Assembly (NCBI GenBank): GCA_023269615.1
Contig: JAHFSY010000008.1
Span: forward strand, 68,052-132,051
Source: Verrucomicrobiota bacterium
Lineage (GTDB): Bacteria; Verrucomicrobiota; Verrucomicrobiia; JABWAM01
Direction of reading: 5' to 3'
DNA length: 64,000 nt
Part shown: positions 3,883 through 33,950 of the stretch, one piece after another
Position numbering within the stretch: position 1 is the stretch's first letter
Layout of the letters: each line of letters opens with the position of its first letter
The notes under the pieces: generated by a model
Seen by the model: the letters and a program-made list of their open reading frames with translations, nothing else
What the model was told of the DNA's origin: nothing
Database searches by the model: none
Made by a program: the position numbers and the translations under genes

Positions 3883-3940
3883 GTGTCAGGCCACAATCCG
3901 TTAAGATTTGAACATGACTTAACGGATTGCGGCCTGACAC
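3883..3940 (-). terminator. 23-bp-stem hairpin overlapping the stop codon of the esterase gene
   Basis: GTGTCAGGCCACAATCCGTTAAG, a 12-nt loop, then CTTAACGGATTGCGGCCTGACAC (one G-U mismatch). It sits at the 3' end of CDS 3919..4806. No clear U-tract follows. Confidence 0.35.
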
Positions 3941-4806
3941 CTGAACACATGTTGTTTTAGAAAAGCCAAAACGCGGTTGAAAACCCCGGAAGCTATGGCA
4001 TCGAAGCCGTGGCCACCCCCGAAAATGGTGATCAATTCGTGCTCCACGCCGGCGCTTGAAAGTTTCTCCGCCATCAGGACCGATTGTTGATAAGGCACAT
4101 CTGCATCCTGATCACCGTGAAGCAGCAAGGTGGGGGGATAGTCGGGGGTGACATTGCGAACAGGACAGAAGCAATCGAATGCATTCGGCTCAGTATGGGG
4201 ATCGTGACCGGTCACTTCCTTTGGCAAAAGCCCCTGTTGACGACAGTAGAGGTAGAATTGGCCTCGGTTATTTTGGCCTGAGTCTTCAGAAATGATTCTC
4301 TTACCAACCGCTCGATATGCTTCCTCCTTCGTGACAAGAGGCTGCTGGCAATACAAGGGATAGGGGGTGGAAAGCCAGGGTCCATCAATGTCGCCGTAAC
4401 CACAGAATGAAACCAGCGCTTTGGGACGAGGGACCACGCAAAAACCCGTCATCAACGTGAGATAACCCCCAGCTGAACCACCAATTACCGCGACTCGATC
4501 TGGATCAATTCGAAAAAGTTTGGGGCCTTTTTCGAGCAACCACCGGTAAGCATCCTGAATATCCTCAATGATCCCTTTTAACTTTGTTTCCGGTGCCAGA
4601 CGATAATCAACTGAAACGACGGTGTAGCCGGCCTCCAGATACAAATCGAATTGATCGGGAACAATCGCTCTCCGATCGGTCTTCATCAATGCTCCCCCAT
4701 GGATCCACAAGATGACTGGTCGAATGGCGCGATCCGAGGCTCCATACACATCAGCCTGAATTTTGCACTCGCCGATCGTCTTGTAAATGTATGTTTGCTT
4801 GTTCAC
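3919..4806 (-). CDS. alpha/beta hydrolase, esterase/lipase (Aes-like)
   Basis: HGGA box (LWIHGGALM) and GGSAGG serine motif. C-terminal HGF segment. Confidence 0.8.
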   Translation of the reverse strand: MNKQTYIYKTIGECKIQADVYGASDRAIRPVILWIHGGALMKTDRRAIVPDQFDLYLEAGYTVVSVDYRLAPETKLKGIIEDIQDAYRWLLEKGPKLFRIDPDRVAVIGGSAGGYLTLMTGFCVVPRPKALVSFCGYGDIDGPWLSTPYPLYCQQPLVTKEEAYRAVGKRIISEDSGQNNRGQFYLYCRQQGLLPKEVTGHDPHTEPNAFDCFCPVRNVTPDYPPTLLLHGDQDADVPYQQSVLMAEKLSSAGVEHELITIFGGGHGFDAIASGVFNRVLAFLKQHVFRCQAAIR

Positions 4807-4959: not shown

Positions 4960-5847
4960 CTATCGCCCAGGGGTTGATGTTCGTGGACCCGGTGTCCAGT
5001 TTTGATCCGTTTGAAAATTGAGAATATCCTCCACGCGTCCTGGTCGAACCAACGGCCACCCTTTGTGCACCCCCGGCCGGTTCTCGTCGGTATTATACGC
5101 CACAATCGACGCACGACGATCATAAGGAGACAAATTATGACCGGAGGAATGCATCAGGTTACAATCAAAGAAAATGCAATCCCCGGGCGCACACGTGATC
5201 GGCAAAGGCTTGATCCTGGCGCAAACCTCTTTCATGGTTGAATTTGACAGGAAGGTCATCGTCAGTCCCCCGCCCGTGTCGCCGTCCTCCCGGTGGGGAA
5301 GCCGCCCTAATTTGTGGGAACCTGGTAGAACGGTGAGGCACCCATTTTCAGGCACCGCATGATCCAGAAATACCATCACAGAGAACATGTCGGGTTTGAC
5401 ACTCCCCATGCCCTGCCAATAGCCATAATCCTGATGCCACAGCCATGCAATGCCATCGAACGCCTTTTTATTCATGAACTTGCAGTGATGAATGTACTGT
5501 TGCTCTCCAAAGAGCTGGAAAGCCGGATCGATGATCCGCGGATCCCGACACATCGCCTCGAATGCGGTCCCCGTATGATCCAACCCCGCGTAGATGGACA
5601 TCGTTTGACCGGACGCATTGTTGTACATGAAATACTGCTTTTGATCGATGGCCGATGCCTCCTTGCATCGTTTTGCCGCCAATTCGCCATCTTGAAGGAG
5701 CCTGTCAACTTCCTGGGTGCTGAACACGCTTTTGCGCACGACAAAACCTTCTTCTTTCCACTGCGTCAATTCAGCAGGTGTAAAGCGAAAGTCCCGGGTT
5801 GTTGATGTTTTCACGGTTGCACAATTCAAGGATATTTCCAGGTCCAA
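4960..5847 (-). CDS. phytanoyl-CoA dioxygenase (PhyH) family Fe(II)/2-oxoglutarate oxygenase
   Basis: [11 protein letters not shown]-x-D motif and a distal His (LMHSSGHN). 295 aa. Confidence 0.6.
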
Positions 5848-8994: not shown

Positions 8995-9798
8995 TCACAA
9001 GTTATAATGCGTTCCCATCGCGCCGGGCCCCATCTCCTCGTCCTTGCGCTGGTAACGGTTGTCGCATGAAAAGCGGAGACGGTCGCCCGTGACATTGGGC
9101 AGCGCCTTGTGAATCGTGTGGGAGTGGAACACGAGGAAATCCCCGAGGCCAAAATCACAGGCCTGCCACTCGGTCCCATCCTTCGGCATGGCCTCCTCGG
9201 TCACACCCATGCCCGCTTAGATGCGAACCTTGTTGAGCTGGTGCTCGATGAAGCCGGCGCGGTGAGAGCCCTTCAGCACCGCGAGGCCGCCCAACTCCAA
9301 CGGGCATTCGCCGATCGGCATCCACAGGGTGAATGTGCGCGGCGTTCCGCGGATGTACTGGAAATCCTGGTGCGCCGGCGTCGTTTGTGCCGTGTTGTTT
9401 GGGAATGTGACCCGCCCCATTTTGCGACGGTGCAGCAGCACCTCGCCGCCAAGGATCCTCTCCATCAACTTCATCAACCCTTCATCCTCGGGAAGCCCCA
9501 GGAAGGAGGGAATGTTCAGCATCTTTTTGTAGACCGGCATGTATTCCGGATCGCCCTCCCCGAATGGCCCAACGCCCGTCCAGATCGCGTCCAGGGAACT
9601 CCCATTCGCCCTGGCCCATCCGACGTCCCGACAAAGTTTCAGAATATCCCGCCGCGCCCGCAGTACTTTCTCCTTCGGCGCCATGCCCCGGAAATAGAGA
9701 TAACCATCCTCGTCCAACAAACGGTTCAACCCCACCGGGTCGTTGAAAACATCATTCGCAATCGCAAGAGGTTGATAAGCGGCCATGGTGGTGGTCAT
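8995..9798 (-). pseudogene. PhyH-family dioxygenase, copy 1, interrupted by an in-frame TAA
   Basis: ORFs 9217..9927 and 8995..9210 are collinear with the intact paralog at 20313..21113. A TAA (minus-strand codon at 9217-9219) replaces the paralog's Tyr codon: ...KVRI*AGMGV versus ...KEHKYAGMGV. Confidence 0.55.
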
Positions 9799-9923
9799 GC
9801 GCACAACATACCCCAACCCGCCGCGTGTGAAAATGGACGGACGTGCGAATATATGGACAATCCAGGCATGTTTGCGAACATTTGGAGTCTGGCAGCCCCC
9901 CTCTACCACCACACCGCTTGATA

Positions 9924-10736
9924 TCACAATGACCCGGACTTCTCCTGGGATGCCAGTACGACCAACATCTGGTAGAATCTGAAGGTGTGATTGTCATCCG
10001 GGCTTTGGGCTGTTTCGGACTGGTAGCGATTCAACACATCCTCAATAAACGTCGCCCGCCTGGATTCGGGGATGAGCCGCGTCCATTCCACGAAAGTAAC
10101 CTGGCAGAATCCGGCGAACGCTTCGCGGGTTTTGAAATCCCAGGCCCTGTCCATCAGCTCGATCCGCACGACACGGAACCCGGCCCGCTCAGCCATGACC
10201 CGGTACTCTGCCGGGGGATAATGCGCGTACGGTTTTCGATAGTCCGCGAAATATTCCGTCCAAGTCTTGGACCTTCGAGTGTCTTCAATCACATCTTCGA
10301 GGCTCTTGCGGTCACCTTCCGGCACAAACCTGAGAAGTGCGGAACCCCCGGGCTTCAATGCCTGGAGGATGGCACGGAGCGCCTTCTCTTGTTCGGGAAC
10401 CCAATGCAGTGCGTTGAATGAGATCACGAGGTCAAACTGATTCCGGTAGGTCATCGAGCGCACATCCGCCACTTTGAAATGAAGATTGGGGTGACCCGCC
10501 GGATCAAAGTGGCCGGACGCAAATGCAATCATCTGGTGGGACGGGTCAACACCGAGGGCCGAGCCCCGGGGCAGGCGTGCGACTACCTTCGCCGTGATTT
10601 TCCCATCTCCGCACCCAACATCCAGGATATGCTCCCCTCCCTTGAATTCCAAATGTCCCAACTGCTCCTCAGCCATGGCTTCCTGAAGGCTGGATTGTTG
10701 CGAATACTTAAGAGCGTTCCATTCCGTCATATTCAT
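9924..10736 (-). CDS. class I SAM-dependent methyltransferase (trans-aconitate methyltransferase-like)
   Basis: Motif I ILDVGCGDGKIT and acidic motif II; Tam-like overall. Confidence 0.8.
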   Translation of the reverse strand: MNMTEWNALKYSQQSSLQEAMAEEQLGHLEFKGGEHILDVGCGDGKITAKVVARLPRGSALGVDPSHQMIAFASGHFDPAGHPNLHFKVADVRSMTYRNQFDLVISFNALHWVPEQEKALRAILQALKPGGSALLRFVPEGDRKSLEDVIEDTRRSKTWTEYFADYRKPYAHYPPAEYRVMAERAGFRVVRIELMDRAWDFKTREAFAGFCQVTFVEWTRLIPESRRATFIEDVLNRYQSETAQSPDDNHTFRFYQMLVVLASQEKSGSL

Positions 10737-10801
10737 CCTCCGTTTTCCCCGTCAAAGGTTCCGAAGCACCGACCGCTTCTCGATGGTCCGCGCGCGTGTG
10801 T

Positions 10802-12181
10802 TTATCCGCCGATCTGGCGGAGGGGCTTTCCACCCATAAGATTTTTTTCGATCTGCTCCAGCGAAACCCCCTTGGTTTCCGGACAGAACTTGAAGAAGAA
10901 AATAATGAACGACGCGTTGAGGGCGGCAAAGAGCCAGAACGTACATGCGTCTCCCAACACATGCTTGATGGAGAGGAACGACGCGCCGATCAGGGTGTTG
11001 CCGATCCAGTTGGTCATGGTGGAAACCGTCACGCCAAGCTCGCGACCCTTGAGGGGAAAAATTTCCGAGCACAGAATCCAGATCACCGGGCCGCTGGACA
11101 TGGCAAATCCCACAACGAAGAGAACCAATCCCGCCACCATGAAAGCCTGCCCGATGCCGCTGTCGGCGCCCCTGTAAAACATCAACCCCACCACGGCCAT
11201 GGAGACGGCCATGACGGCTTGTCCCACATAAAGGATGGGCTTGCGTCCCCAGCGGTCCACAAACGCGATGGCAATGAAGGTGGCGAGGACGTTCACGGCA
11301 CCGATCAGAACCGTACCCAGCATCGGGTTGCTCAGGTGCGCATCCTTGAAGATGGCTGGCGAGTAATACATCATGACATTGATGCCGGTGAGCTGCTGAC
11401 AGATCTGAAGGCCCATGCCCAGCAGGAGTGCCCTCCGAAAGTTCGGGTTGTGCAGCAGGGTGAATCCCGCTCCCGCATCATCTTGCAGCATGGCATTCTT
11501 GATGTCCTTGATTTCCAGATCAACCTCCCCATCCGAGGAGCGCAAATCCCGGAGCACGGCCCGCGCCTGCTTCTCCCGGTTGTTGAGGACAAGCCAGCGG
11601 GGAGATTCGGGAAGGAACAACACCCCGAAAAACATGCACACGGAAGGCACGACAACAATGCCCAGCATGATGCGCCAGTTGAGGGCGTCGTTCGTGATCC
11701 AATGCTTGATGGCCCAGTCGCTCAGGAACGCGCCGAGAATGCCGATGGTGATGAGCAGCTGGTACATCGAGATCAGCGACCCACGCTGACGCTCGGGCGC
11801 CATTTCGGAAAGATACAGAGGAGCGGTAAACGAGGCAATGCCCACGCCGACGCCCAGGACAAGGCGAAAGACGATCAACGCCCCGGTGCCAAAGGACAGG
11901 CTGCTTCCGGCTGCGCCAATGGTGAAAATGATCGACGACAGGAGGATGGCCTTCTTGCGGCCGAACACCCGAGACACCCTGCCGCTGGCCAGCACGCCCA
12001 GCACGGCTCCAACCGTGACCATCGAAACAATCTGCTCCTGGACGAACTTGTCAGACGTGATGTGATAATGGGTCGAAATGAACTTGAGCGCACCCGAGAT
12101 CACGCCGACATCGAGCCCGAGTAGCAACCCGGCCAGCGCCGCAATCAAGGCGACGACATAAATCTTCATTCCATTTTTCAT
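10802..12181 (-). CDS. MFS sugar porter family transporter
   Basis: 12 TM helices, GR(K/R) motif GRKKAILLSS, PESPRWL signature, PETKG near the C-terminus. Confidence 0.85.
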   Translation of the reverse strand: MKNGMKIYVVALIAALAGLLLGLDVGVISGALKFISTHYHITSDKFVQEQIVSMVTVGAVLGVLASGRVSRVFGRKKAILLSSIIFTIGAAGSSLSFGTGALIVFRLVLGVGVGIASFTAPLYLSEMAPERQRGSLISMYQLLITIGILGAFLSDWAIKHWITNDALNWRIMLGIVVVPSVCMFFGVLFLPESPRWLVLNNREKQARAVLRDLRSSDGEVDLEIKDIKNAMLQDDAGAGFTLLHNPNFRRALLLGMGLQICQQLTGINVMMYYSPAIFKDAHLSNPMLGTVLIGAVNVLATFIAIAFVDRWGRKPILYVGQAVMAVSMAVVGLMFYRGADSGIGQAFMVAGLVLFVVGFAMSSGPVIWILCSEIFPLKGRELGVTVSTMTNWIGNTLIGASFLSIKHVLGDACTFWLFAALNASFIIFFFKFCPETKGVSLEQIEKNLMGGKPLRQIGG

Positions 12182-12338
12182 CGGATGCGAGGCACAGTCG
12201 TCATGTTTTTTAAAACGCTATGGCCCGCCCTGGGTGAAGTAAATGACAAACTATGAAGCCTTCATGATTCAGGCTTTCTCTTGCCTGGATGCTCTGGTAT
12301 TGCTGCCAAGACACCTTTGAAATCAGCCAGAAAATTTT

Positions 12339-13106
12339 ATGAAACTTGCCGGAAAAACTGCCATCATCACGGGGGGCGCCCAGGGAATCGGACGCGCCGT
12401 TGCCATCCGGTTTGCCAGGGAAGGTGCGGATGTGGTCATTGACGACCGCATTGCGGCCGGCGGAGCGCAGGACACGCTGGCCGAGATCCAGAAACTTGGG
12501 CGCAAAGGTTGCGTGATCGCAGCGGACATCGCCTCACTCGCCGACAACCGGCGGATGATCCAGGAAGCCGCTGAAAAAATGGGCGCGCTGGACATCCTGG
12601 TGAACAACGCAGGCGTGGAGCGACGCGGATCTTTCTGGGAAGTGACCGAAAAGGATTTTGATTTCGTGATGAACATCAACCTGAAGGGGCTTTTCTTCGC
12701 CACGCAGGCCTTCACACAATACCTCATCTCCGCCAAGCGCCCTGGAAAAATCATCAACATGAGTTCCGTGCACGAGGAGCTCCCCTTCCCCCATTTTTCC
12801 ACCTACTGCGCCAGCAAGGGCGGCGTGAAGATGCTCACACGAAATCTATCCATTGAGCTGGCGCCGTTCGGCATCACCGTCAACAACATCGCCCCGGGAG
12901 CCATTGAAACCCCCATCAACACCAAGCTGCTGAACAACCCTGATCTCCTGAAAGCACTCCTGGACAACATCCCCCTGGCCCGACTCGGAAAGCCTGAAGA
13001 CGTTGCCGGCCTCGCCGCTTTCCTGGCATCCGCGGACGCAGACTACGTCACCGGAGCCACGTACTCCGTTGACGGCGGACTGCTCTGGAACTATTCAGAA
13101 CAGTAG
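12339..13106 (+). CDS. SDR family oxidoreductase (glucose 1-dehydrogenase-like)
   Basis: TGGAQGIGRA cofactor motif, NNAG, and catalytic Y-x3-K (YCASKGG). Confidence 0.85.
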   Translation: MKLAGKTAIITGGAQGIGRAVAIRFAREGADVVIDDRIAAGGAQDTLAEIQKLGRKGCVIAADIASLADNRRMIQEAAEKMGALDILVNNAGVERRGSFWEVTEKDFDFVMNINLKGLFFATQAFTQYLISAKRPGKIINMSSVHEELPFPHFSTYCASKGGVKMLTRNLSIELAPFGITVNNIAPGAIETPINTKLLNNPDLLKALLDNIPLARLGKPEDVAGLAAFLASADADYVTGATYSVDGGLLWNYSEQ

Positions 13107-13117
13107 GAGACGTCAGC

Positions 13118-14170
13118 ATGAACATCACCAGCGAACCGTGGGGCATGCATGACGGAAAGAATGTCGAGCTGTTCACGCTTGAAAACAAAAACGGCGTCAG
13201 GGCAAAAATCACAAGCTACGGAGGAACCATCGTATCGCTGAAAGTGCCGGACAAGCAGGGCCGGTTTGCCGACGTGGTGCTGGGCTACGACAAGCTGGAG
13301 GATTATGTGAAGAGCCATGCGTTTTTCGGCGCGATCGTCGGCCGTTATGCAAATCGCATTGCGAATGGAACATTCACGCTCGAGGGCAGGGAATACAGGC
13401 TGGCGGTCAACAACGGCCCGAACTCGCTGCACGGCGGAAAGGTGGGGTTCGACAAAAAAGTGTGGTCCCCGCAGAAAGCCTGTCATCCCAGCGCAGCCGG
13501 CTTGGAACTCACCTACACCAGCCCCGACGGCGAAGAGGGCTATCCCGGCACCCTCAAGTGCAAGGTGACCTACCTGCTCACCAACGACAACGAACTGCGC
13601 ATCGAATACCACGCGACGACCGACAAGGCGACGGTGTTGAATCTGACCAACCACAGCTATTTCAACCTCGCGGGCGAAGGCAGCGGCTCCGTCCTCGACC
13701 ATCACATCATGATCAACGCCGATTACTTCACGCCCGGCAACGCGGACCTCATCCCCAGCGGCGAGAAGGAGTCCGTGGCCGGAACACCCATGGACTTCAC
13801 GAAGATGCGGTGCATCGGAGAGCGCATTGATGAAGACTACGAGCCGCTCAAGTTCGGCATGGGCTACGACCACAACTACATCATCTCGGGCGGGTCCGGC
13901 CTGAAGACTGCAGCAAGGGTATGGGACCCGCAATCCGGCCGTACAATGACCGTGGAAACAACCGAACCGGCGGTGCAGTTCTACACAAGCAATCACTTGA
14001 AGAAAATGACCGGCTGCAAGAACGGCCACGCCTACGACTTCCGCGATGCGCTCTGCCTGGAGACACAGCACTACCCTGACAGCCCCCATCATCCGAATTT
14101 TCCATCGACGGTGCTCGTCCCCGGTGACACCTACCAGCAGTCGACTGTTTATGCTTTCACCGCCGATTGA
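13118..14170 (+). CDS. galM: aldose 1-epimerase (galactose mutarotase)
   Basis: Mutarotase signatures (NNGPNSLHGG, EEGYPG, conserved His/Glu region). It follows the SDR gene by 12 bp. Confidence 0.85.
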   Translation: MNITSEPWGMHDGKNVELFTLENKNGVRAKITSYGGTIVSLKVPDKQGRFADVVLGYDKLEDYVKSHAFFGAIVGRYANRIANGTFTLEGREYRLAVNNGPNSLHGGKVGFDKKVWSPQKACHPSAAGLELTYTSPDGEEGYPGTLKCKVTYLLTNDNELRIEYHATTDKATVLNLTNHSYFNLAGEGSGSVLDHHIMINADYFTPGNADLIPSGEKESVAGTPMDFTKMRCIGERIDEDYEPLKFGMGYDHNYIISGGSGLKTAARVWDPQSGRTMTVETTEPAVQFYTSNHLKKMTGCKNGHAYDFRDALCLETQHYPDSPHHPNFPSTVLVPGDTYQQSTVYAFTAD

Positions 14171-15347
14171 CTCCGTCCCTGCGGAGTTGGGGCAGGATGT
14201 TTTGGTGGATATATTCGCTGATGAGTTCTCCGGCGCAGCGATGTCCATTTTCATTCCAATGGCCACAGCCCAGGGTGGTGTTGGAAAATCCATGCAGGAA
14301 GAGATGCTCACGATCCGCCAGCCGTTGAAGCGGGCGTACAAGCGACAACTCCGCGATATGGTTTCGACGGCAAAATTCCTCGATGCGATCATCGGGATAA
14401 AACAGGGAAGCCGCCAGCCTCGCTCGCAACGCGCAGTCGGGATGGACCTGGATGGGATTGCTGAGGGTGACCACGAGGAGCCTTGACCCATCGGCCTTCA
14501 CCTCTTCATCGAGCTTTGCAATGAGCGCTTCGGTTACACGCCACGCATCGGACCACGCCTCATCGTGGGGTTCCAAATAGACGCCATCATTCAGGCCGCC
14601 CGGATTATTTCCTGCCGGGTGCATTGCCTGAACGAATCGAGATTTATACTCGTAGGCAAATTGAGCCAGATAGGATGCGTCCAGTATATGCTGAATGAAA
14701 CGGGTGCGTCTCGAAGTAAGCTGCCGGTATTGGGGCGACGCGAGAAAGGAATCATCCTCTTCCAGTCGATTTTCATGACAAACGAAAAATGGGCGTGTGC
14801 GTTCGCGCTCAAGCGCACGCGAGTTTTCGCGGATGTCATTGCCAGTGAAGACGGCAAGAACGACCAGGTCCGGCGAATAATGACGGACGCAGTGTCGATA
14901 TGCGAGCAACTCCTGGGCCGTACCGTAGCCGGACACTCCGAAGTTCAAAACCTCCACGGGATCGTGCTGGGAGTCCACGGCGAGACGCTTGATCAAATCA
15001 CCTCCAATCACCTGGCAAAGCGAATTTTCCCAAGAAACATGAAATGCCTCCACGAACGAATCGCCGAGCACGGCGATGCGCAACACTCCGCGTGTTTTTT
15101 TGAGCGAGCGCTCCCGATCATGCCAACCCTGGCTGTTGATTTGCACATGGGAATGCCCCTCCTTGGAGTAGGATGCGCAGATGCCTGGTCGTAGCGACGC
15201 GCCCAGATGCAGGTCTGGCCTGTAGAAACCCGGGTAGGAAATCCCCATGAGCCGCAACGCAATTTCCAGAATTCCCATTCCCCCGATCAAGCCGATCGTG
15301 ATTGCCACACACCGGAATATGACTGGCTTGTGGTAGGGCGCGACCAC
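14157..15347 (-). CDS. SGNH/GDSL-type hydrolase with N-terminal TM anchor
   Basis: Block I VLGDSFVE, block II GVSGYG, block III GND. The ORF runs to 15740, but that would overlap the upstream gene (which ends at 15436). The likely start is the GTG at 15345-15347 just before the TM helix, though it is uncertain. Confidence 0.5.
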   Translation of the reverse strand: MVAPYHKPVIFRCVAITIGLIGGMGILEIALRLMGISYPGFYRPDLHLGASLRPGICASYSKEGHSHVQINSQGWHDRERSLKKTRGVLRIAVLGDSFVEAFHVSWENSLCQVIGGDLIKRLAVDSQHDPVEVLNFGVSGYGTAQELLAYRHCVRHYSPDLVVLAVFTGNDIRENSRALERERTRPFFVCHENRLEEDDSFLASPQYRQLTSRRTRFIQHILDASYLAQFAYEYKSRFVQAMHPAGNNPGGLNDGVYLEPHDEAWSDAWRVTEALIAKLDEEVKADGSRLLVVTLSNPIQVHPDCALRARLAASLFYPDDRIEEFCRRNHIAELSLVRPLQRLADREHLFLHGFSNTTLGCGHWNENGHRCAGELISEYIHQNILPQLRRDGVNRR

Positions 15348-15419
15348 CGGGCGCACCGCTGCGCAGAGGACGGCCCGGCGGTCCGTCCCTACCTCGGCGC
15401 GGCTATTTTCCGGACACGC
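15332..15419. repeat. GC-rich palindromic repeat, family GGTAGGG...CCCTACC, copy A
   Basis: About 90% identical over ~88 bp to 36828..36915. The arms are GGTAGGGCGCGACC(A/G)CCGGGC and GCCCGGCGGTCCGTCCCTACC. Confidence 0.7.
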
Positions 15420-15435
15420 ACTCAGGGGGATCAGA

Positions 15436-16146
15436 TCAATGGATGAAATAGTTGCAGTACCCAACCTGCCAGAACAGATCCAGGGGCTTGTCCATCCAAG
15501 CCACATGGCGGTCCCAGATCTTCTTGGACACAGCCGCTTTCCGTCCCGCATCCAGGGCTGCCTTAAATCCCCGGCCGGCCTCCGTCGCCGCCCGCCGGCT
15601 GGTTTTGATGTCCAATACATTGACCGGCGTTCCGTCTTTGCGTTTGAACACATGGTTGGCAGTCTGATCCACGAGCACCCACTTGCCGCCGACGAAAACC
15701 TCTGCAACGACATGCCCCTTCTTGCTGCGCATCCCGGCAAAGACCAGTCGTGAAGGCATGCCCAGGATCTGGGTCAATGCCACCAGCACCCGCGCCTGTT
15801 CGTTGCACCAGCCATGTCCGGAAAACAGAAGTTCCTCCTCGGACCCTCCCCGGTTTCCAACCCCTTCAAAATCCAGCTCCACATAGTGGTTCATCTGTTT
15901 CACCAGCGCGTTCACGCACCTTTCAAGGGTCGCCAAGCCAGGTTTGCCAGTCACTTTTTTCCGCGCCAGAAACTTCTCCAGCCTGGGTCGCGAACCCCGG
16001 CGGTAAAAAACCTGCGGATAGGTGAAAGACTCATAAAACCAGCGCAACGGAATTCCGCCTGAATCCGCGTAGTTCAGCGACTGTTCCAAGTCTCTGCCGC
16101 AGACCGGCGGCACATAACGGCCCTTAATCTGAGGAAATTTTTGCAT
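15436..16146 (-). CDS. transglutaminase-like superfamily protein
   Basis: GHGWCNEQARV (Cys nucleophile) and GHVVAEVFVGGKWVLVDQT (His/Asp) arrangement. Confidence 0.6.
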   Translation of the reverse strand: MQKFPQIKGRYVPPVCGRDLEQSLNYADSGGIPLRWFYESFTYPQVFYRRGSRPRLEKFLARKKVTGKPGLATLERCVNALVKQMNHYVELDFEGVGNRGGSEEELLFSGHGWCNEQARVLVALTQILGMPSRLVFAGMRSKKGHVVAEVFVGGKWVLVDQTANHVFKRKDGTPVNVLDIKTSRRAATEAGRGFKAALDAGRKAAVSKKIWDRHVAWMDKPLDLFWQVGYCNYFIH

Positions 16147-16278
16147 GGATCATCCTTTTGTAAAAAATAGGCCCTATCCATCAACCTTGAGGGTCAAATG
16201 ACCCCATGTCACGAACGGTTTACGGCCCCGGTCATTTTTGGCTTTAACCGGACGCATGGTTCCTCCACTTCTATTCAT

Positions 16279-16938
16279 ATGAACAAACAACTCCTTCGCT
16301 CCGTTGCACTCCTCATCCTGATTCCTGTTCTTCTCGGGGCCGCGTCGAAGAACAAGATTTCGCCTGAGATTGCGCTGAAACGGTTGATGGATGGAAACCG
16401 TCGGTTTGTCGCTGAAGCCATTACCGGTCCCCATCGAACTGCGGAGCGGCGGAGCGAGGTGGCGTCCAACCATGCGCCGTTTGCCTCCATCCTCAGTTGC
16501 TCTGATTCCCGCGTACCACCCGAACTCCTGTTCGACCAGGGCTTCGGCGATCTCTTCGTGGTCCGCAATGCCGGGAACATCGAGGATGACATCGTCCTCG
16601 GCTCGCTCGAATATGGGGCGGAACATCTTCACGCCCCATTGATTCTGGTCCTCGGGCATAAAAGTTGTGGCGCAGTGACGGCCGCGGTGCATGGCGGCAA
16701 CCACAACAACCATATTGACGACGTGGTGAATGCCATCGAGCCAGCGGTGGAGGCCGCGAAGGAGCAACATCCTGGTGACGTGGACGCAGCCACCCGCGCC
16801 AATGCGCGCCTTGTCGCCAGGCGCCTCGCCGAAAAAAGCAAAATTCTCTCGCACCTGATCGAGAGTGGAGAACTGAAGATCCTCGCCGGGTATTACGACA
16901 TGGATACCGGCCGCGTGAAGCTTCTGTCCGATGAGTGA
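16279..16938 (+). CDS. beta-class carbonic anhydrase, secreted
   Basis: CSDSRV and HKSCGAV zinc-ligand motifs. Signal peptide MNKQLLRSVALLILIPVLLGAAS. The ORF extends upstream to 16198. Confidence 0.85.
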   Translation: MNKQLLRSVALLILIPVLLGAASKNKISPEIALKRLMDGNRRFVAEAITGPHRTAERRSEVASNHAPFASILSCSDSRVPPELLFDQGFGDLFVVRNAGNIEDDIVLGSLEYGAEHLHAPLILVLGHKSCGAVTAAVHGGNHNNHIDDVVNAIEPAVEAAKEQHPGDVDAATRANARLVARRLAEKSKILSHLIESGELKILAGYYDMDTGRVKLLSDE

Positions 16939-17827
16939 CCCGCTCGCCGAGGCTGTCGCGATGTTCCTCACGCAGGTGAGGATCGAGAAGGGGCAATCCG
17001 ATCTCACGGCGCGCACCTACCAGCGTCACCTCGACGGTTTCCGTGCGTTTGCGCGAAAGGTCGGGCGCGCGTCATGGGGCGATGTGACGGTCGAGGACGC
17101 GCAGGCGTGGCTGGCGCAGTTGAAGAAGCGAGGTTTTCACATCAACACGCTGTACATTGCGCTTGCCTCGCTCCGCGCCATGTTCAAGTACACGCACACC
17201 GAGGGATGGACCCAGGATTTTTCACAGGTGCTCGACCTGCCGCGACGCTGGGAAAATCTTCCCCACGCGCTGGACCCCACGGACATTGAAAAACTGTTGA
17301 ATGCCGCCGAGCTGGACACGGATCGCGGCGTGCGGGATCGCGCGATCCTCGAATTATTTTATGCGTCCGGACTGCGGCTGGCCGAGCTGGCGCGCCTGCA
17401 ATTGGGCGACGTGCAATGGGAACTCGGCGTGGTGCGGGTGACCGGCAAGGGGGGCAAGCAGCGCGTGGTGCCCGTGGGAAAGCAGGCCATCGGCTGGCTG
17501 AAACGTTATCTCCGCGACATCCGTCCGAATTTCGTCACGGAGCGAACCGGCAGCAACATGTTCCTGAGCCGGCGCGGGACGGGGGTCAGCCGTGAAACCG
17601 TTGCCCTCACGGTGCGTCGCCTTGCCAAGCGGGCAGGGATTGGGAAGCGGGTGACCCCGCACATGCTGCGGCATTCTTTTGCCACCCACTTGCTGGCCGG
17701 CGGCGCGGATCTGCGCGTGATCCAGGAAATGCTCGGCCACAGCAGCATCGAGACGACGCAAATTTATACGCACGTGGACCGCGGCCAGTTGCAAAAGACC
17801 CACCGCGATTTTCATCCACGCGCGTGA
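16931..17827 (+). CDS. xerD: tyrosine recombinase XerD-like (chromosome dimer resolution)
   Basis: RHRY-family catalytic residues: ...ELARLQLGDV, HMLRHSFATHLL, LGHSSIETTQIYTHV. It is closer to XerD than to XerC. Confidence 0.8.
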   Translation: MSDPLAEAVAMFLTQVRIEKGQSDLTARTYQRHLDGFRAFARKVGRASWGDVTVEDAQAWLAQLKKRGFHINTLYIALASLRAMFKYTHTEGWTQDFSQVLDLPRRWENLPHALDPTDIEKLLNAAELDTDRGVRDRAILELFYASGLRLAELARLQLGDVQWELGVVRVTGKGGKQRVVPVGKQAIGWLKRYLRDIRPNFVTERTGSNMFLSRRGTGVSRETVALTVRRLAKRAGIGKRVTPHMLRHSFATHLLAGGADLRVIQEMLGHSSIETTQIYTHVDRGQLQKTHRDFHPRA

Positions 17828-17913
17828 AGTCTTTTTCAGCTTCCGCAAGTTGACCCGGCACCCATGACGAATTAGATTGTGCAAGCCGCTCCAATCCTTC
17901 CCCTTCGAATCAT

Positions 17914-20325
17914 GTGAAACGACCATCCCCCACCTACCGTCACGGCGCCGATCCATTCCTGCCGCTCGGGCCGATCGTGTGGGAGGGAAAACGCGATCGG
18001 GTGGTGCTTTCGCCTGCAGACGGCGGACGCGTGATTTCATGGCGTCACGGTCGCGCGGGCGAACTCGTGCGCGGGCTGGATGTCGCTGATGGAGGATTGC
18101 TGCGCGTGCTGCTTGGCGAGGAACGGTATCCCGGCGCGAGCTACGTGACACCCCACCTCGTGCACGTGCAGCGCCAGGACGAGCGGGGGTTCCGCGCACA
18201 CATGCGCTACATCTGGAACACGCCCAACGCAATTGCGTGGCTCCTGGGGTGGCCGGACAAGGTCAATCCCGTGTACCTCGACGGGCTGCAGCTCGACAAG
18301 ATCGTCACGTTCGATGCGGCGCAGTCGGTCTTTCTGGTGGAACTTTCCATCGCGAATTACTCGGGAGAAATGCGAAAAATCTCACCGTGGCTTCACAACA
18401 ATTTCCAGGGCTGGGTGGACCAGGGCTTTGTCGTGCGCGGGGGACGCGAAGAGCCCTATACCTGGCACGATATTTATTGGGCCGGGCACCATCCCCTGCC
18501 GGGTAAAACAATGCGACTCGTGCACGCGGACCGTCGCGGCTCGCTCTTCGCCGTGCTCGGCTCCGGCCCATCGTTTCTGGCGGGCATGGCTTCTTACACG
18601 CACGCCGATTTTGGGGAAGGCAACACCGAGGGTTGCATGGAGCTGCGTGGAAAAACCCTGTCGCTCGCGCCCGGCACCCGCTGGTGCGGCACGGCATTTC
18701 TCGCCATGACCCAGGGCCCCGAAAGCTGGCGACGATGGGCCGTGAAATCACCCCTGCCCCTCGTCAGCTTCGTGGACGAAGCGGCGGCCAGTTACATCGA
18801 GCCCTCGTCCGTCGCCCCCCTCCTTCATCACTGGGCGCTGCCCGAGGAACGTCGCAAGGGGCTCATGGCGATCTCCTGGCTCGACAAAATCCCGTTCACA
18901 TCGGCGAGCCGGTACTCGGCGTCAAACACCTTCGCCGGATTTCATCCGGGCCGCAGCGGGCGCGCACAGGCATCCGTGGGACTTGTTCCGCTGCGCATGC
19001 TCGACCCATTGCGCGTCGAATTGCGCGGTGGGCGCGGATGGAATCTTGTCGCAGAACACGAACGGGGCCGGTGCCTGACGGTGCCCATGACGACGCATCA
19101 ACCGGTTCGCCTTCTCCTGGAAGGGCCATCCCATCTCACGGGAAGAGAATCCGTGGAAGTCCATCTCTCGACACCCAGGGAACGGCTGGTGGTTTTGGGT
19201 GTGCCACGCGATGCAAGCGTGGGGCCGCGTCACCCATACCAGGTCAAGCAGGTTTCATCCTATCTCGAGGATCGCTTTTGGGCCGAGAAAGATTCTTGCG
19301 CCGGGAGAACCACCGCCGAGTCACGGCGCTGGCAGGCGAAGGCGAGAAGGCGTTTGCTTCAATGGGCGCGCGATGCGGTGACCGAGCCATCCCCTCTCGC
19401 GCCACGCCTGATGGAACGCCAGGTTGGGCCTCATTGCGTGCGTGAAAAAATCCTGATCCAGACGGAACCCGGGATCTGGATGCCGATGTACCTGGTGTAT
19501 CCGCGAAATGCGGGCCGCAAAAAAATCCCGGCAATCCTGTTCCCTCATGGCTCCGGCCCGGGAAAACTCCGTTTCGCGCCGGACGAAACAGCCGATGTGC
19601 AGCATCGCTCTCATTTGAACCGCTGGCCTTCACCCTACCAACTGGCGCATCAACTCGGTTGCATCGTGCTGCTCCCGGATCGCAGGGGCTGGGGCGAATG
19701 GTCGGAGGCCAACCACGGCCAGCGCCCGCACCGCGCCGAGCGCGCGGGCTACAACATCACCGCCATGGAAGCGTGGGACCATCTCCGCGCCGTGGATTTT
19801 CTCGTGTCGAACAGGAACGTGGACACGCGACGCATTTTCAGCATGGGCAGTTCCGGCGGAGGATGGCTGACGCTCCTCCTCATGGCGGCGGACGTGCGCC
19901 TAGCCGGCGGCATCGCGAGCAGTACGCCAACCACCAAGCCGAGTCTGCCCGAGCAATATTTCTACCAGGTCTTCGAAAACGAGGAGGATGAGGTGGATCC
20001 CACCTCGAGTCTCCCGATGTCCACGGCAACCATCGGCTGCCTCGCCGCGCCGCGTCCGCTGTGGGTGATGGACGGACGCTGGGACCGCCAGATGATCCCG
20101 CCTCCACCGCACACCGAGGCGGAGGAGAAATCGCTCTTTGCACGAAACCAGGCCCGGGCCAATGCTGGACGCGAGGAAATCGGGCGACTGTATCGAGCCC
20201 TTGGCGCATCAAGCCGCTACGAGGCAAGCTGGTTCGACGGCGGACACATGGCGGGGTTCACCTTCCGCAACATCGCGAAGTGGCTGGGCAAACACTTTGG
20301 AATTTGCTCGCGTCACAGATTATGA
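17914..20325 (+). CDS. large hypothetical protein with C-terminal alpha/beta-hydrolase domain
   Basis: 803 aa. The C-terminal ~300 aa carry GSSGGGW (GxSxG) in a dienelactone-hydrolase/acetyl-xylan-esterase-like context. The N-terminal 450 aa are unassigned. Confidence 0.55.
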   Translation: MKRPSPTYRHGADPFLPLGPIVWEGKRDRVVLSPADGGRVISWRHGRAGELVRGLDVADGGLLRVLLGEERYPGASYVTPHLVHVQRQDERGFRAHMRYIWNTPNAIAWLLGWPDKVNPVYLDGLQLDKIVTFDAAQSVFLVELSIANYSGEMRKISPWLHNNFQGWVDQGFVVRGGREEPYTWHDIYWAGHHPLPGKTMRLVHADRRGSLFAVLGSGPSFLAGMASYTHADFGEGNTEGCMELRGKTLSLAPGTRWCGTAFLAMTQGPESWRRWAVKSPLPLVSFVDEAAASYIEPSSVAPLLHHWALPEERRKGLMAISWLDKIPFTSASRYSASNTFAGFHPGRSGRAQASVGLVPLRMLDPLRVELRGGRGWNLVAEHERGRCLTVPMTTHQPVRLLLEGPSHLTGRESVEVHLSTPRERLVVLGVPRDASVGPRHPYQVKQVSSYLEDRFWAEKDSCAGRTTAESRRWQAKARRRLLQWARDAVTEPSPLAPRLMERQVGPHCVREKILIQTEPGIWMPMYLVYPRNAGRKKIPAILFPHGSGPGKLRFAPDETADVQHRSHLNRWPSPYQLAHQLGCIVLLPDRRGWGEWSEANHGQRPHRAERAGYNITAMEAWDHLRAVDFLVSNRNVDTRRIFSMGSSGGGWLTLLLMAADVRLAGGIASSTPTTKPSLPEQYFYQVFENEEDEVDPTSSLPMSTATIGCLAAPRPLWVMDGRWDRQMIPPPPHTEAEEKSLFARNQARANAGREEIGRLYRALGASSRYEASWFDGGHMAGFTFRNIAKWLGKHFGICSRHRL

Positions 20326-21113
20326 TGCGTCCCCATTGCGCCCGGCCCCATCTCCTCATCCTTGCGCTGGTAACGGTTGTCACATGAGAAGCGCAGGCGA
20401 TCGCCGGTGACGTTGGGCATCGCCTTGTGAATCGTGTGGGAATGGAACACGAGAAAATCCCCGAGGCCGAAATTGCCTTCATGCCACTCGGTGCCATCCT
20501 CCGGCATGTCCTCATCCATGACACCCATTCCCGCATATTTATGTTCCTTGTTGATCTTATGCTCGACGAACCCCTCGCGATGCGAACCCTTGAGCACGGC
20601 AAGCCCGCCCAGCTCGATGGGGCATTCGCCGATCGGCATCCACAAGGTGTAGGTGCGCGGCGTGCCACGGATGTACTGGAAGTCCTGGTGCGCCGGCGTG
20701 GTCTGGGATGTGTTGTTTGGAAACGTGACGCGTCCGATCTTGCGGCGATGAAGCAGCACCTCGCCTCCGAGGATCCGTCCCATCAACTTCATCAACACAT
20801 CGTCCTCCGGAATCTGGAGGAAGGACGGAAGGTTCAGCATTTGCTTGTAAACGCCCATGTATTCCGGATCGCCCTCGCCATAAGGCCCCACCCCGCTCCA
20901 GACCGCGTCCAGCGTATCCCCGTACGGCTTGATCCAGCCCGCATCAAGGCAGAACTTCAAGATATCCCGCCGCGCCTGCAGGACTTTTTCCTTTGGCGCC
21001 ACGCCTCGAAAATAAAGGTAACCATGTTCGTCCAGCAGGCGGTTCAGTCCCGCCGGATCGTTCAAGGCATCGTTCGCAACAATGAATGGGGAATGGGCAA
21101 TGGTGGTTGTCAT
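20313..21113 (-). CDS. PhyH-family Fe(II)/2OG dioxygenase, intact copy 2
   Basis: AHQDF H-x-D and HSHTIHKA motifs. Paralog of 8995..9798. Start chosen at MTTTIAHSP. Confidence 0.65.
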   Translation of the reverse strand: MTTTIAHSPFIVANDALNDPAGLNRLLDEHGYLYFRGVAPKEKVLQARRDILKFCLDAGWIKPYGDTLDAVWSGVGPYGEGDPEYMGVYKQMLNLPSFLQIPEDDVLMKLMGRILGGEVLLHRRKIGRVTFPNNTSQTTPAHQDFQYIRGTPRTYTLWMPIGECPIELGGLAVLKGSHREGFVEHKINKEHKYAGMGVMDEDMPEDGTEWHEGNFGLGDFLVFHSHTIHKAMPNVTGDRLRFSCDNRYQRKDEEMGPGAMGTHHNL

Positions 21114-21185
21114 GGAACGCAACATACGCGCAAGCGCTGCCCATGGGAATGGACGCCTCTGCGAATACATGGACATTTCAAAAAC

Positions 21186-22118
21186 TCACCTCCACCGCTG
21201 CTTGTGGCGGAACTGCGAGGGGGCGTTGCCGAAGTGATGGCGGAAGACCCGTGAAAAATAAAGCGGGTCCTCGAATCCCACGGCATCGGCCGCCTCGCGG
21301 ACGTTCAGGCGTCCTTCGATCAGGAGCCGCCTTGCCTGAAGCAAGCGCTGTTGCAAGACATGACGACGAAAGCCCATGCCGCGGATCTGCTTGAAGAAAT
21401 GGGCGAAATGATCTGCGCTCACACCGGCCCTGCGGGCGAGTTCCTCCAAGGAGGGTGGTTGGCGGAGGTTTTGCAGGATGTGATGCTCCGCGTCGGCGAC
21501 CACCTGACGATGCAACGCCGAGGCAATCGTCGTCTTCCGCCCAGTCAACAACAGATCCTGCCACGACTGGATGAGCAACAAAAGCAAACCTCGCTTTTCA
21601 AACAACCTTCCCTCCGGATCGGCAAGATGGGACAGGACCAGCGATTCGCAATGCTGACGGAAACCGCTCACGAGCCCGGGTGACGCCTTGGTCGGAGGCG
21701 CGGGTACGAGCGGGCAGACCGGCATGCCGCGCGCAAATACAAATTTCGTCTCCGACAAACGCGGAACCTCCGGGGCGGTCAGATGGATGTCCTGCTCGCG
21801 AAACAAAAAATGAAATCCGATGAGGCGGAGCGGACGGTCCCGGCTGGAGCGAATCGCATGGCGGACATTGGGGCAGTAAAAAAACATGTCGCCGGCCTCC
21901 ATCGTATGCATTTTGCCTCCGATCTCAGCCTCACCACAACCCGCCTGGACAAAATGGACCTGGAAATCGCGGGCGTACCGCGGCCCGAATCCCCCGCACG
22001 GTTTCGCGTCATAAAACGCCGCAAAATACAACCGGGGCGTCAGCACCCGGTCCGCGCTCCACGACGTCGCGCTCTGGCTTGCTTTGGGCATGATGATAAG
22101 CAGCTGCTCCATTCCCAT
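21186..22118 (-). CDS. AraC-family transcriptional regulator with N-terminal cupin-like sensor
   Basis: C-terminal double HTH (LEELARRAGVSADHFAHFFK...DAVGFEDPLYFSRVFR). The start ATG overlaps the kinase stop (ATGA). Confidence 0.8.
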   Translation of the reverse strand: MGMEQLLIIMPKASQSATSWSADRVLTPRLYFAAFYDAKPCGGFGPRYARDFQVHFVQAGCGEAEIGGKMHTMEAGDMFFYCPNVRHAIRSSRDRPLRLIGFHFLFREQDIHLTAPEVPRLSETKFVFARGMPVCPLVPAPPTKASPGLVSGFRQHCESLVLSHLADPEGRLFEKRGLLLLLIQSWQDLLLTGRKTTIASALHRQVVADAEHHILQNLRQPPSLEELARRAGVSADHFAHFFKQIRGMGFRRHVLQQRLLQARRLLIEGRLNVREAADAVGFEDPLYFSRVFRHHFGNAPSQFRHKQRWR

Positions 22119-24262
22119 CAGTGCCGAGGCCGCCCTCCGCCCCCAGGTCCGCCGGGCCCTCCGCCACCCCCGCGCCCCTGCGCGCGGCCGCAGTTCATCA
22201 TCATCTTCATCGCCAGGGAAACCCGTTGTTTTTCAAAATCAGCATTCGATAATTTTCGTGCTTCATCCATCACCTTGCCATTATCGTTCAATGCCTGCGT
22301 CAAGGCACTTGACTCCCTGGCTCCACGGTTCAGCAATGCCTCCTTCATCATGGACAGCTCATCTTTTCTGACCTGCGACCAGTCGTGGTCGGAAGCCGCG
22401 CGCGCCGTGGCCAGTAATTCATCCATGTGCTGGGCTCCCTCCTGCATTTCATGCGGCAGATTGGCGAACAGGTTGCTTCCCTTCCCGGAATCATCCCCGC
22501 CCGGCGGAGGGCCATCCGGCGGTCCGCGCGATCCGCCACCCTCACCAGGGGGGACGCGTGGCGAATCGGGGTTGAAAGGCGTCTCGGTGTCCATGTTGCC
22601 CGACGGAGCGTGCGGCTCCTGGTGTGACACTTCCACCGGCTTCGGCATCGCCGCGAGTTTCACCGTTCTCACGGCGGAAACCTCCTTCAGCGACGCGGTG
22701 AATTTGGCCTCCTGATAACCTTCCATTCTCAACATGCAATCCACCGATTCGCCATCACCACCTTGCAGCACATAAGGAGTCTTGTCCTTGAGCTCGCCAT
22801 TGACCAGCACGTCGGCGCCCGGAGGATCACTTTCGATGGTGATGCTGCCGGGAATCCGCTTCAACGTTTCGTTGACCTCCACCAGTTCTCCCTCCTTGAT
22901 CTCCACATCCATGTCCATGTCGCGATAGCCCGTCATCCGAATCTTCAGCCTGTAATTCCCCTCTTTCATGTCGTTGAACGTGTGGGGCGAGATGCCGGTC
23001 GCCGCTCCAAAAAGAACGGTCGCCTTTTCTGGCTGCGTCCGCACAAACAAACTCCCGTTCTTCACTTGAGGCGGTGGTGGAGTCACCACGGCCACTGGCG
23101 GCACCACGGGGACCGCTGCCGGCGCGGGCGCGCTCGCCGCAACCGCCGGGGCTGGCGGCTCTTTGTGCCGCGCCTTCATGCTCCAACCCCAGATCATTAA
23201 AAGCAAAACCGCAACCGCAACCGCAGCCCATGCGCCCTTCCGCTGCCAGAACGATGGAGCCGTTGGCGAAACGGTCGCGCCTGCCGCCATCACCGGCGCA
23301 ACCGTCGGCGGAGGCGCCTCCACAGTCAGATCAAGATCCACTTCCAACACGCTGATGCCCTCCTTTTCAAGCAGGCTGGCCACCGTGCGCTCATGAAATC
23401 CCACACGCGAAAAAATCTCCTGCGACGCCACGTCCATGGGATAGCTCGCCAGCCACGGCTCGACCGCCTGCTTCAGTTCCGTCGCTGTTTGAAATCGCTC
23501 GTCACGGTCTTTGGCCGTCATCTTCGCAATCAAGCCATCCAGGGAAGCTGTCATCTCGGGATCGGAAAGTCCCACCGATGGAATCGGTTCGTTCAAGTGG
23601 GCCACGCACACTGCGGCGGCCGAAGTTTGCTGGAAGGGAACATGTCCCACCAGCATCTGGAAAAAACTGATCCCCAGCGCGTACAAATCGGAACGATGAT
23701 CCGCCGTCTTCGAGTCATTGATCTGCTCGGGACTCATGTAATGGGGCGAGCCCATCACCATCCCCGTCTGCGTCATCCCCTGGTCCGCCTCGAAATGATC
23801 CTTCGCCAGCCCCAGGTCCATGATCTTGAGCCCGCCCGAGGCGTCTATCATCATGTTCTCCGGTTTGATGTCGCGATGGATGATGCTCTTGCCGTGGATG
23901 TATTCCAACCCCACGAGCGACTGGCCCAGCCAGTACAACGCCAGCGGCAGGGGCAGCGCTCCGTTCTGGCGCAAAATCTGGCCCAGAGTCATCCCTTCGA
24001 CGTACTCCATGGCAATGAAATACTGGTCCTCGAACTTGTCGCAGTCGAACACGCTGATGAGATTCGGATGGGCCAGGGCGGCCGTCGCTCGCGCCTCGCG
24101 GAGAAAACGGTCCGCGGCATCCTTGTCCTTCGAAAACTGGGGAGTGATCACCTTGATCGCGCAGTAACGCTTCAAGGTTTTTTGACGCGCCAGGTACACG
24201 GCCCCCATCCCTCCCTGGCCGAGTTTCAGCAGCAAATTGTATCTACCAAAGCCAAGCATCAT
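22118..24262 (-). CDS. Ser/Thr protein kinase with C-terminal PEGA domain and Gly/Pro-rich tail
   Basis: GQGGMGAVY, AIK, HRDIKPENM, DLGLAK and SPE motifs. TM helix. PEGA module (GSITIESDPPGADVLVNGE). Confidence 0.85.
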   Translation of the reverse strand: MMLGFGRYNLLLKLGQGGMGAVYLARQKTLKRYCAIKVITPQFSKDKDAADRFLREARATAALAHPNLISVFDCDKFEDQYFIAMEYVEGMTLGQILRQNGALPLPLALYWLGQSLVGLEYIHGKSIIHRDIKPENMMIDASGGLKIMDLGLAKDHFEADQGMTQTGMVMGSPHYMSPEQINDSKTADHRSDLYALGISFFQMLVGHVPFQQTSAAAVCVAHLNEPIPSVGLSDPEMTASLDGLIAKMTAKDRDERFQTATELKQAVEPWLASYPMDVASQEIFSRVGFHERTVASLLEKEGISVLEVDLDLTVEAPPPTVAPVMAAGATVSPTAPSFWQRKGAWAAVAVAVLLLMIWGWSMKARHKEPPAPAVAASAPAPAAVPVVPPVAVVTPPPPQVKNGSLFVRTQPEKATVLFGAATGISPHTFNDMKEGNYRLKIRMTGYRDMDMDVEIKEGELVEVNETLKRIPGSITIESDPPGADVLVNGELKDKTPYVLQGGDGESVDCMLRMEGYQEAKFTASLKEVSAVRTVKLAAMPKPVEVSHQEPHAPSGNMDTETPFNPDSPRVPPGEGGGSRGPPDGPPPGGDDSGKGSNLFANLPHEMQEGAQHMDELLATARAASDHDWSQVRKDELSMMKEALLNRGARESSALTQALNDNGKVMDEARKLSNADFEKQRVSLAMKMMMNCGRAQGRGGGGGPGGPGGGGRPRH

Positions 24263-26183: not shown

Positions 26184-26257
26184 GAATGAATCTCTCGCAG
26201 CTTCCCCCTCTTTCTTTCAACTTTCAACTTTCAACTTTCGCCCGTACTCTGTCGCCC

Positions 26258-32610: not shown

Positions 32611-32615
32611 GATTT

Positions 32616-33884: not shown

Positions 33885-33950
33885 CGAGGGATGTAGGATT
33901 TCATATCGGAAGTACGGATTGCAACAACGAAGCAAGGCTGCGTCACACTT

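Follow-up and report, generated by a model that had tools for sequence, protein, structure and literature searches.

We analysed a stretch of 64,000 nucleotides (nt) from a Verrucomicrobiota bacterium (contig JAHFSY010000008.1, positions 68,052 to 132,051 of the forward strand), hereafter called the window, in which two related genes for PhyH-family dioxygenases, copy 1 and copy 2, stand in the same orientation on either side of a block of about 10.5 kb with a tyrosine recombinase gene in it. We regard the two genes, with a probability of roughly 85%, as an old pair of paralogues in an ordinary stretch of chromosome, of which copy 1 was recently inactivated by a nonsense mutation, and which share an upstream motif of putative AraC-operator type without being part of a mobile unit. 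The evidence comes from the divergence of the two genes, from the recurrence of the premature stop codon in other public assemblies and from the comparison with the closest relative found. The main coordinates are given in Table 1.

Two diverged copies of a PhyH-family gene

The initial annotation described a same-strand pair of PhyH-family genes, and this was confirmed by the listing of open reading frames (ORFs), by translation and by pairwise BLAST; both genes are encoded on the minus strand with a start-to-start spacing of 11,318 nt. The DNA identity was lower than the approx. 85% estimated there. Over the coding DNA 638 of 801 positions were identical (79.7%), the BLAST alignment (8992-9859 against 20310-21175) contained 683 identical positions in 869 (79%), and the proteins were 79% identical. 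The longest exact tracts common to both copies measured 25, 23, 21 and 21 nt. An extension of the similarity by about 40 bp beyond the stop codon, as initially described, was not observed: the similarity ended 3 nt past the stop codon and the next 40–60 nt could not be aligned. The extension was found upstream of the start codons, where approx. 62 nt (9799..9859 against 21114..21175) were 69% identical. The list of genes between the copies was correct, as every one of them was recovered in the profile annotation.

Copy 2 matched PF05721 (PhyH) with 66.4 bits (E 5.6e-18; cut-off 22 bits), and the truncated product of copy 1, as given by gene callers (P0015, 236 amino acids), also carries PF05721. 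The best match of copy 2 to a solved structure was PtlH (PDB 2RDN; E 6e-19, residues 15-260), the 1-deoxypentalenic acid 11-beta-hydroxylase of Streptomyces avermitilis. The HQD of copy 2, an HxD motif, and the second His of its FHSH, the distal His, aligned with the metal ligands of PtlH, and by this alignment the HxD/E...H iron facial triad is present in copy 2. The premature TAA of copy 1 separates the codons for the HQD, which precede it, from that for the distal His, which follows, and no single product contains the complete triad. On the NCBIfam equivalog profile for PtlH copy 2 reached 84 bits, far below the cut-off of 550, and it is therefore not a PtlH orthologue. The genomic context differs as well, since both copies are surrounded by genes of sugar metabolism and hydrolases and not by those of terpenoid biosynthesis. 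The likeness extends to the wider group of PhyH/ectoine-hydroxylase-like Fe(II)/2-oxoglutarate dioxygenases, as PF05721 was matched above its gathering score. Judged by profiles and alignment, the pair is predicted to encode an uncharacterised PhyH-family Fe(II)/2-oxoglutarate dioxygenase.

The window contains a third, distant PhyH-family gene (PF05721, E 3e-30), which showed approx. 22% identity to copy 2 in a local match only and which adjoins a gene for an alpha/beta hydrolase of BD-FAE/S9 type. The proximity of a PhyH gene to an alpha/beta hydrolase gene recurs: copy 2 lies beside an S9-like hydrolase, and on contig L009, which carries a PhyH homologue, the neighbour is a DLH/Abhydrolase. 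This recurrent adjacency may hint at a functional pairing.

Age of the duplication and selection on both copies

In a neighbour-joining tree of 60 homologues copies 1 and 2 were sisters, and P0002, encoded on the Logan contig L004, branched outside the pair with 73% protein identity to each copy. L004 was the only moderately close relative in the searched collections; its genomic context is partial and the copy 1 end is not covered. Between copy 1 and copy 2 the synonymous divergence dS was 1.02 and the nonsynonymous divergence dN 0.11, giving a ratio (omega) of 0.11 by the Nei-Gojobori method; for the segment after the premature stop omega was 0.09. With L004 as outgroup 19 amino-acid changes were unique to copy 1 and 16 to copy 2, and from these numbers together with a dS of about 1 it follows that the pair is old and the stop recent. 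If nonsynonymous changes accumulate about nine times faster in a pseudogene, the small excess in copy 1 would imply that it was free of constraint during no more than a few percent of the period after the duplication. The substitution pattern indicates that both copies were under strong purifying selection for nearly all of that time. Between the window and L004 the amino acid identity of orthologues was 72% for an AraC-family regulator, 73% for the S9-like hydrolase and 79% for the Xer-type recombinase, which makes the duplication about as old as the split of the window and L004 lineages. Ancient copies together with a block that is invariant in relatives had been named in the initial annotation as an outcome that would tell against its reading of the repeats; as to the first of these, at a dS near 1 and a coding identity below 80% the copies are indeed ancient.

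The two genes are more similar in their 3' third. The proportion of synonymous differences was 0.37-0.45 in codons 180-260 and 0.48-0.73 elsewhere, and dS was 0.70 for the C-terminal part against 1.17 for the N-terminal part, as would be left by an old, partial gene conversion. We consider such an event unlikely, since the 3' part comprises only approx. 46 synonymous sites, is the most conserved region of the protein and in copy 2 extends into the end of the gene for the convergent hydrolase. Given this conservation and overlap, constraint together with codon bias could explain the difference in dS. Even in the 3' part dS was 0.7, so that any conversion would be ancient.

The premature stop codon in copy 1

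As initially annotated, copy 1 has a TAA (KVRI, stop, AGMG) where copy 2 encodes Tyr (KEHKYAGMG), and the codon of copy 2 was found to be TAT. Of 60 homologues, 51 have Tyr at position 194, which in copy 1 is occupied by the stop, and 52 have Lys at the preceding position 193, where Ile was seen solely in copy 1 (K193I).

The product of copy 1, P0015, is carried by the assemblies ERZ27296333 (278,792-bp source contig), ERZ27280176, ERZ27297344 and the Logan assemblies SRR14366769 and SRR14366772. Over 2.2-4.0 kb, contigs of ERZ27280176, ERZ27297344 and SRR14366769 matched the window at 100% identity, including the TAA; for SRR14366772 the identical truncated gene of 236 amino acids is on record at the level of the gene call. 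Several samples and no fewer than two sequencing runs underlie the contigs showing the TAA, which were built by two assemblers (k141 contigs of MEGAHIT style, and Logan). Nothing on the run accessions was found in the literature searched. TAC or TAT at 9217-9219, which the initial annotation had proposed as the reading that would disprove the stop, was not encountered, as the other public contigs whose DNA was fetched all read TAA. At position 18385, inside the S9-like hydrolase gene, contig L012 (ERZ27280176) showed a C/A difference from the window, the sole variant in approx. 18.6 kb of cross-sample comparison; this single-nucleotide polymorphism (SNP) in one sample implies that the assemblies are not copies of one consensus. 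No intact allele of copy 1 was found among the homologues of copy 2 or the cluster members in 5.8 billion protein clusters. We concluded that the TAA of copy 1 is genuine. The reproducible stop, codon 194 of 267, precedes the distal His, and as the truncated product lacks the third iron ligand, copy 1 is a real pseudogene.

We also considered that copy 1 could still be functional, either as a two-piece enzyme, for which translation would end at the TAA and start again from the ATG at 9210..9208, or by readthrough of the stop codon. Two codons past the TAA this ATG opens an intact ORF of 71 codons, in which both the conserved C-terminus and the distal His are encoded. Copy 1 has also kept its upstream motif and its hand-read promoter intact, and the TAA allele was present in every sample in which the strain was found. 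Nonetheless we regard continued function as very unlikely. The same ATG (Met197) is present in the intact copy 2 and hence is no new start, and the 3' part owes its low omega to the time before the stop arose. TAA terminates 7 of the 44 long ORFs in the window and is thus an ordinary stop in this organism. The conserved Lys beside the stop was lost as well, copy 1 carries extra deviations at conserved columns, and we know of no precedent for a jelly-roll dioxygenase split between its metal ligands. In its most explicit form this alternative would have copy 1 expressed as residues 1-193 and 197-267, by reinitiation at the ATG 6 nt past the stop, with the two pieces reassembling into an active or regulatory dioxygenase under the AraC-type operator. 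This we hold to be highly improbable; if true, the split enzyme would explain why the TAA allele is the sole allele in every sample.

The initial annotation had left the choice between a pseudogene and a sequencing error. The pseudogene stood; that the TAA is a sequencing or assembly error in an intact copy 1 could be argued from the one-base change that restores the conserved Tyr and from the remainder of the ORF, which is intact and looks selected, but random error is effectively excluded by the identical TAA in the DNA of three other assemblies, the truncated call in a fourth, the use of two assemblers, the SNP showing that the sample consensus sequences are not simple copies of one another, and the lack of an intact allele among the protein clusters.

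Public gene calls start copy 1 from a GTG at 9927, which gives the 236 amino acids of P0015, and in some assemblies start copy 2 from an ATG at 21176 (287 amino acids). The resulting N-terminal extensions (9799..9927 and 21114..21176) pass through the conserved motif, which is non-coding, and are probably incorrect; homologues start at MTTT. Two plus-strand ORFs that cover the copies, 9109..9921 and 20427..21254, were rejected as genes. They are shadow ORFs in register with the sense codons, which result from the high GC content at third codon positions (0.73-0.77), with only one TCA codon per gene to give an antisense stop; in other homologues antisense stops occur at different places.

A shared upstream motif

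The conserved region upstream of the start codons contains a bipartite motif of 28 nt. Across copy 1, copy 2 and the orthologue on L004 the consensus reads TGTCCAT-N-T-N-TTC-N-C-N5-CGTCCATT, followed by TATGTT 6-7 nt before the ATG. The half-sites are two directly oriented GTCCAT whose starts are 20 nt apart; the proximal half-site adjoins or overlaps a weak hexamer resembling a -35 element. The pattern GTCCAT-N14-GTCCAT has two sites in the window, upstream of copies 1 and 2, against 0.05 expected; the longer motif consensus with three mismatches allowed returned the same two sites only. L004 has the motif; at the loci of more distant homologues neither the motif nor the AraC gene is present. 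Because an indel of 1 nt shifts the reading frame between the two copies, the conservation acts at the DNA level and not on a protein extension.

An explanation of the upstream conservation by a structured RNA was rejected: no Rfam match was obtained, the z-scores of the folds were +1.97, -0.95 and +0.35, and no common structure was seen. The 28-nt motif was also searched in JGI metagenome contigs; the two matches lie in ORF-poor DNA without homology to PhyH, AraC or S9 and were attributed to chance.

The gene directly upstream of copy 2 encodes an AraC-family regulator with a helix-turn-helix (HTH) domain. At promoters with class II activation by AraC/XylS-type regulators, such as araBAD, the half-sites form a direct repeat with a spacing of about two turns of the helix and overlap the -35 element. 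The present arrangement resembles this type in that an AraC-family gene with a cupin domain directly precedes copy 2 and the direct half-sites lie at a hexamer resembling -35. It differs in that the putative promoter falls below the scan threshold and in that one of the copies, a pseudogene, lies 11 kb from the regulator. An AraC-type HTH regulator with an adjacent, conserved direct-repeat putative operator is thus found here, with the motif in three promoter regions. Judged by its sequence and position, the 28-nt motif probably serves the neighbouring AraC-family regulator as its operator. Binding by AraC, the assignment of the promoter hexamers and a regulation of copy 1 in trans would follow from this reading.

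Genomic context and the ancestral copy

On L004 the genes occur in the order AraC, PhyH and convergent S9-like hydrolase, with 72-74% amino acid identity to the window. As the same order surrounds copy 2, this copy is in the ancestral context. Copy 1 is placed among co-directional neighbours, namely an MFS porter, a methyltransferase, the PhyH gene itself, an aldo-keto reductase and a TrmB regulator. No relative with the copy 1 locus was found in a scan of GTDB genomes or in a homologue search with the methyltransferase. With copy 2 as query, the GTDB species genomes gave one distant match in Latescibacterota (34%) and no relative useful for synteny. Taken by themselves, the names attached to the PhyH homologues and the gene content would suggest a lineage of the Planctomycetota. 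Homologues of the methyltransferase beside copy 1 numbered in the thousands at 58-64% across taxa, with no close orthologue among them and an unrelated context around the best match. PhyH homologues at 57-63% identity (on L006, L007 and L009) had neighbourhoods that were not conserved and contained neither the AraC gene nor the motif, and these unconserved neighbourhoods consequently gave no clue to function. The consensus promoter/terminator scan yielded no terminator after copy 1 or copy 2.

A gene for a Ser/Thr protein kinase with PEGA domains (22118..24262, minus strand) ends at the start of the AraC-family gene with an overlap of 1 nt, which suggests that the kinase and the regulator, possibly together with PhyH copy 2, are co-transcribed. 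Near copy 1, nt 1..96 of contig L001 (ERZ27280176) match nothing in the window; the rest is identical and joins the window at position 11501, so that the junction lies inside the MFS sugar-porter gene. A chimeric end of the contig could account for this, as could a structural variant or an insertion in that sample.

Table 1. Coordinates of the two PhyH genes, their upstream elements and neighbouring features in the window.
Feature	Position	Strand	Remarks
Copy 1, PhyH-family dioxygenase paralogue, pseudogene	8995..9798	-	267 codons, interrupted at codon 194; from translation
Copy 2, PhyH-family dioxygenase paralogue, intact	20313..21113	-	266 amino acids; PF05721; exact protein P0001
In-frame TAA of copy 1	9217..9219	-	TAT in copy 2; same in contigs L001-L003 at 100% identity
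Residual 71-codon ORF 3' of the TAA	8995..9210	-	ATG (9210..9208) two codons after the stop; encodes distal His (FHSH) and conserved C-terminus
Bipartite motif TGTCCATATATTCGCACGTCCGTCCATT, putative AraC-type operator of copy 1	9832..9859	-	28 nt, conserved
Hand-read weak promoter, copy 1	TTTTCA 9833..9828, 17-nt spacer, TATGTT 9810..9805	-	6 nt before ATG
Bipartite motif TGTCCATGTATTCGCAGAGGCGTCCATT upstream of copy 2	21148..21175	-	also upstream of the L004 orthologue
Hand-read promoter, copy 2	TTCCCA 21149..21144, 17-nt spacer, TATGTT 21126..21121	-	7 nt before ATG
AraC-family regulator (cupin ligand domain AraC_binding and HTH_18)	21186..22118	-	directly upstream of copy 2; stop codon 10 nt before the motif
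803-amino-acid alpha/beta (S9-like) hydrolase	17914..20325	+	convergent with copy 2, 13-nt overlap of its 3' end
Xer-type tyrosine recombinase	16931..17827	+	NCBIfam PRK00283
Beta-carbonic anhydrase	16198..16938	+	
Transglutaminase-like	15436..16146	-	
Weak GDSL/SGNH-like hydrolase	14157..15278	-	
Aldose 1-epimerase	13118..14170	+	
SDR	12339..13106	+	
MFS sugar porter	10802..12181	-	
Class I SAM methyltransferase	9924..10736	-	
Third, distant PhyH-family gene and adjoining BD-FAE/S9-type alpha/beta hydrolase	4960..5814 and 3919..4806	-	profile matches

The recombinase and the block between the copies

The initial annotation proposed that the direct repeats around a block with a tyrosine recombinase could support its excision, amplification or deletion by homologous recombination; we considered in addition that the recombinase might act on the copies. 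The direct orientation of the repeats with a tyrosine recombinase gene between them does resemble both the units that are deleted or amplified through direct repeats and integrase islands, and the longest exact tract here, 25 nt, nearly matches the shortest length that allows RecA-dependent exchange in E. coli. The repeats are, however, genes diverged by approx. 20%, and not near-identical insertion sequences, rrn operons or att sites. Mismatch repair suppresses homeologous exchange, and a full-length mutS is encoded in the window at 26186..28831. The dS of about 1 implies that the copies coexisted for long without homogenisation or deletion. Recombination is described as declining log-linearly with divergence and, in transformation of B. 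subtilis, as marginal beyond approx. 15% (PMC4824099; bioRxiv 10.1101/2020.05.13.090589).

The recombinase itself scored 311.8 bits on NCBIfam PRK00283, the Xer subfamily, with a cut-off of 279, and lay just under the equivalog cut-offs for XerD (309.2 against 329.6) and XerC (295.4 against 335.2). An orthologue with 79% identity is located a few kb from the same PhyH cluster on L004. From its profile scores and this neighbourhood the gene is classed as a housekeeping Xer-type recombinase and not as the integrase of a mobile element. It differs from the integrase of an island also in its position approx. 2.5 kb inside the block, not at an edge, and no other marks of an island were found. The GC content ranged from 0.54 to 0.64 with no step at either boundary of the block. 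The comparison with relatives is limited to L004 and to the end with the S9-like hydrolase, Xer-type recombinase and carbonic anhydrase genes, which L004 shares. No tRNA gene flanks the block, the sole tRNA of the window being at 611-700, and no att-like exact repeats flank it; the other repeats were of 30-34 nt with 71-75% identity. Among the annotated genes in 9924..16938 none was a mobile-element gene.

The initial annotation had also suggested a check of junction reads for circular or deletion forms. In the public contigs only parental junctions were seen: contigs of five assemblies tile the block in the order of the window, with parental junctions at both copies and no recombinant ones, and no hybrid protein of copy 1 and copy 2 was present in the protein clusters. 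We concluded that a block which is excised, deleted or amplified through these copies is very unlikely, and that the similarity hugs the genes because only selected sequence stayed alignable, its limits not being the ends of a mobile or recombining unit.

When L004 (4845..9672) was compared with the window (16198..20325), genes for an M50B-peptidase, RmuC and a rhomboid protein were found between the S9-like hydrolase and the pair of carbonic anhydrase and Xer genes, and on L004 this pair is inverted relative to the hydrolase. The comparison of gene orders indicates a rearrangement beside the Xer gene in one of the lineages. The N-terminal 260 residues of the 562-amino-acid rhomboid call on L004 match the antisense strand of the carbonic anhydrase gene of the window; the call probably runs through a carbonic anhydrase gene on the opposite strand.

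Other features of the window

Elsewhere in the window two tandem paralogues of DegT/DnrJ/EryC1-type aminotransferases (31357..32874 and 32616..33935, both minus strand) are followed by CN-hydrolase, MBOAT and GDSL-like genes, in a region that looks like a sugar-modification cluster. Two paralogues of T2SSE-type secretion or pilus ATPases lie close together at 38405..39661 and 40366..41496 (minus strand). The region 44428..57507 (minus strand) holds an ORF of 2391 amino acids, then an ankyrin-repeat protein (51600..52571) and ORFs of 1099 and 547 amino acids; a CsgG-like gene at 57539..58585 also belongs to this large co-directional cluster.

Discussion

In the explanation we favour, copy 1 would be a dispersed duplicate inserted into a co-directional string of sugar-metabolism genes, and copy 2 would have kept the ancestral place between the AraC-family regulator and the convergent S9-like hydrolase. 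Both copies would be driven in trans by the regulator beside copy 2, from promoters that may be activator-dependent and give a transcript with a very short leader or none. A recent single change from TAT to TAA, beside K193I, would then have truncated copy 1 before the distal His in the sampled population.

Several points weigh against this explanation. The hand-read promoters fall below the threshold of the consensus promoter scan, as would be expected of their hexamers if the promoter is activator-dependent. At family-conserved columns copy 1 deviates in 7 of 82 and copy 2 in 2 of 82, and there may have been some relaxation or functional divergence of copy 1 before the stop arose. Only three sequences, with dS near saturation, underlie both the dating of the duplication and the ancestral state assigned to the copy 1 locus. 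The evidence for the TAA consists of assembled contigs, and an intact minority allele of copy 1 may exist.

As a feature of the genome the gene pair is ordinary, and the finding adds little beyond annotation. In public records copy 1 appears as split calls, 236 amino acids with a spurious N-terminal extension and 71 amino acids, which ought to be joined into one entry annotated as a pseudogene. The case also teaches that what appears in the raw sequence as a direct repeat around a recombinase can be a pair of old paralogues near a housekeeping Xer gene. Beyond this, the 28-nt motif offers a testable operator candidate for an uncharacterised module of AraC regulator, PhyH dioxygenase and hydrolase in a barely sampled lineage.

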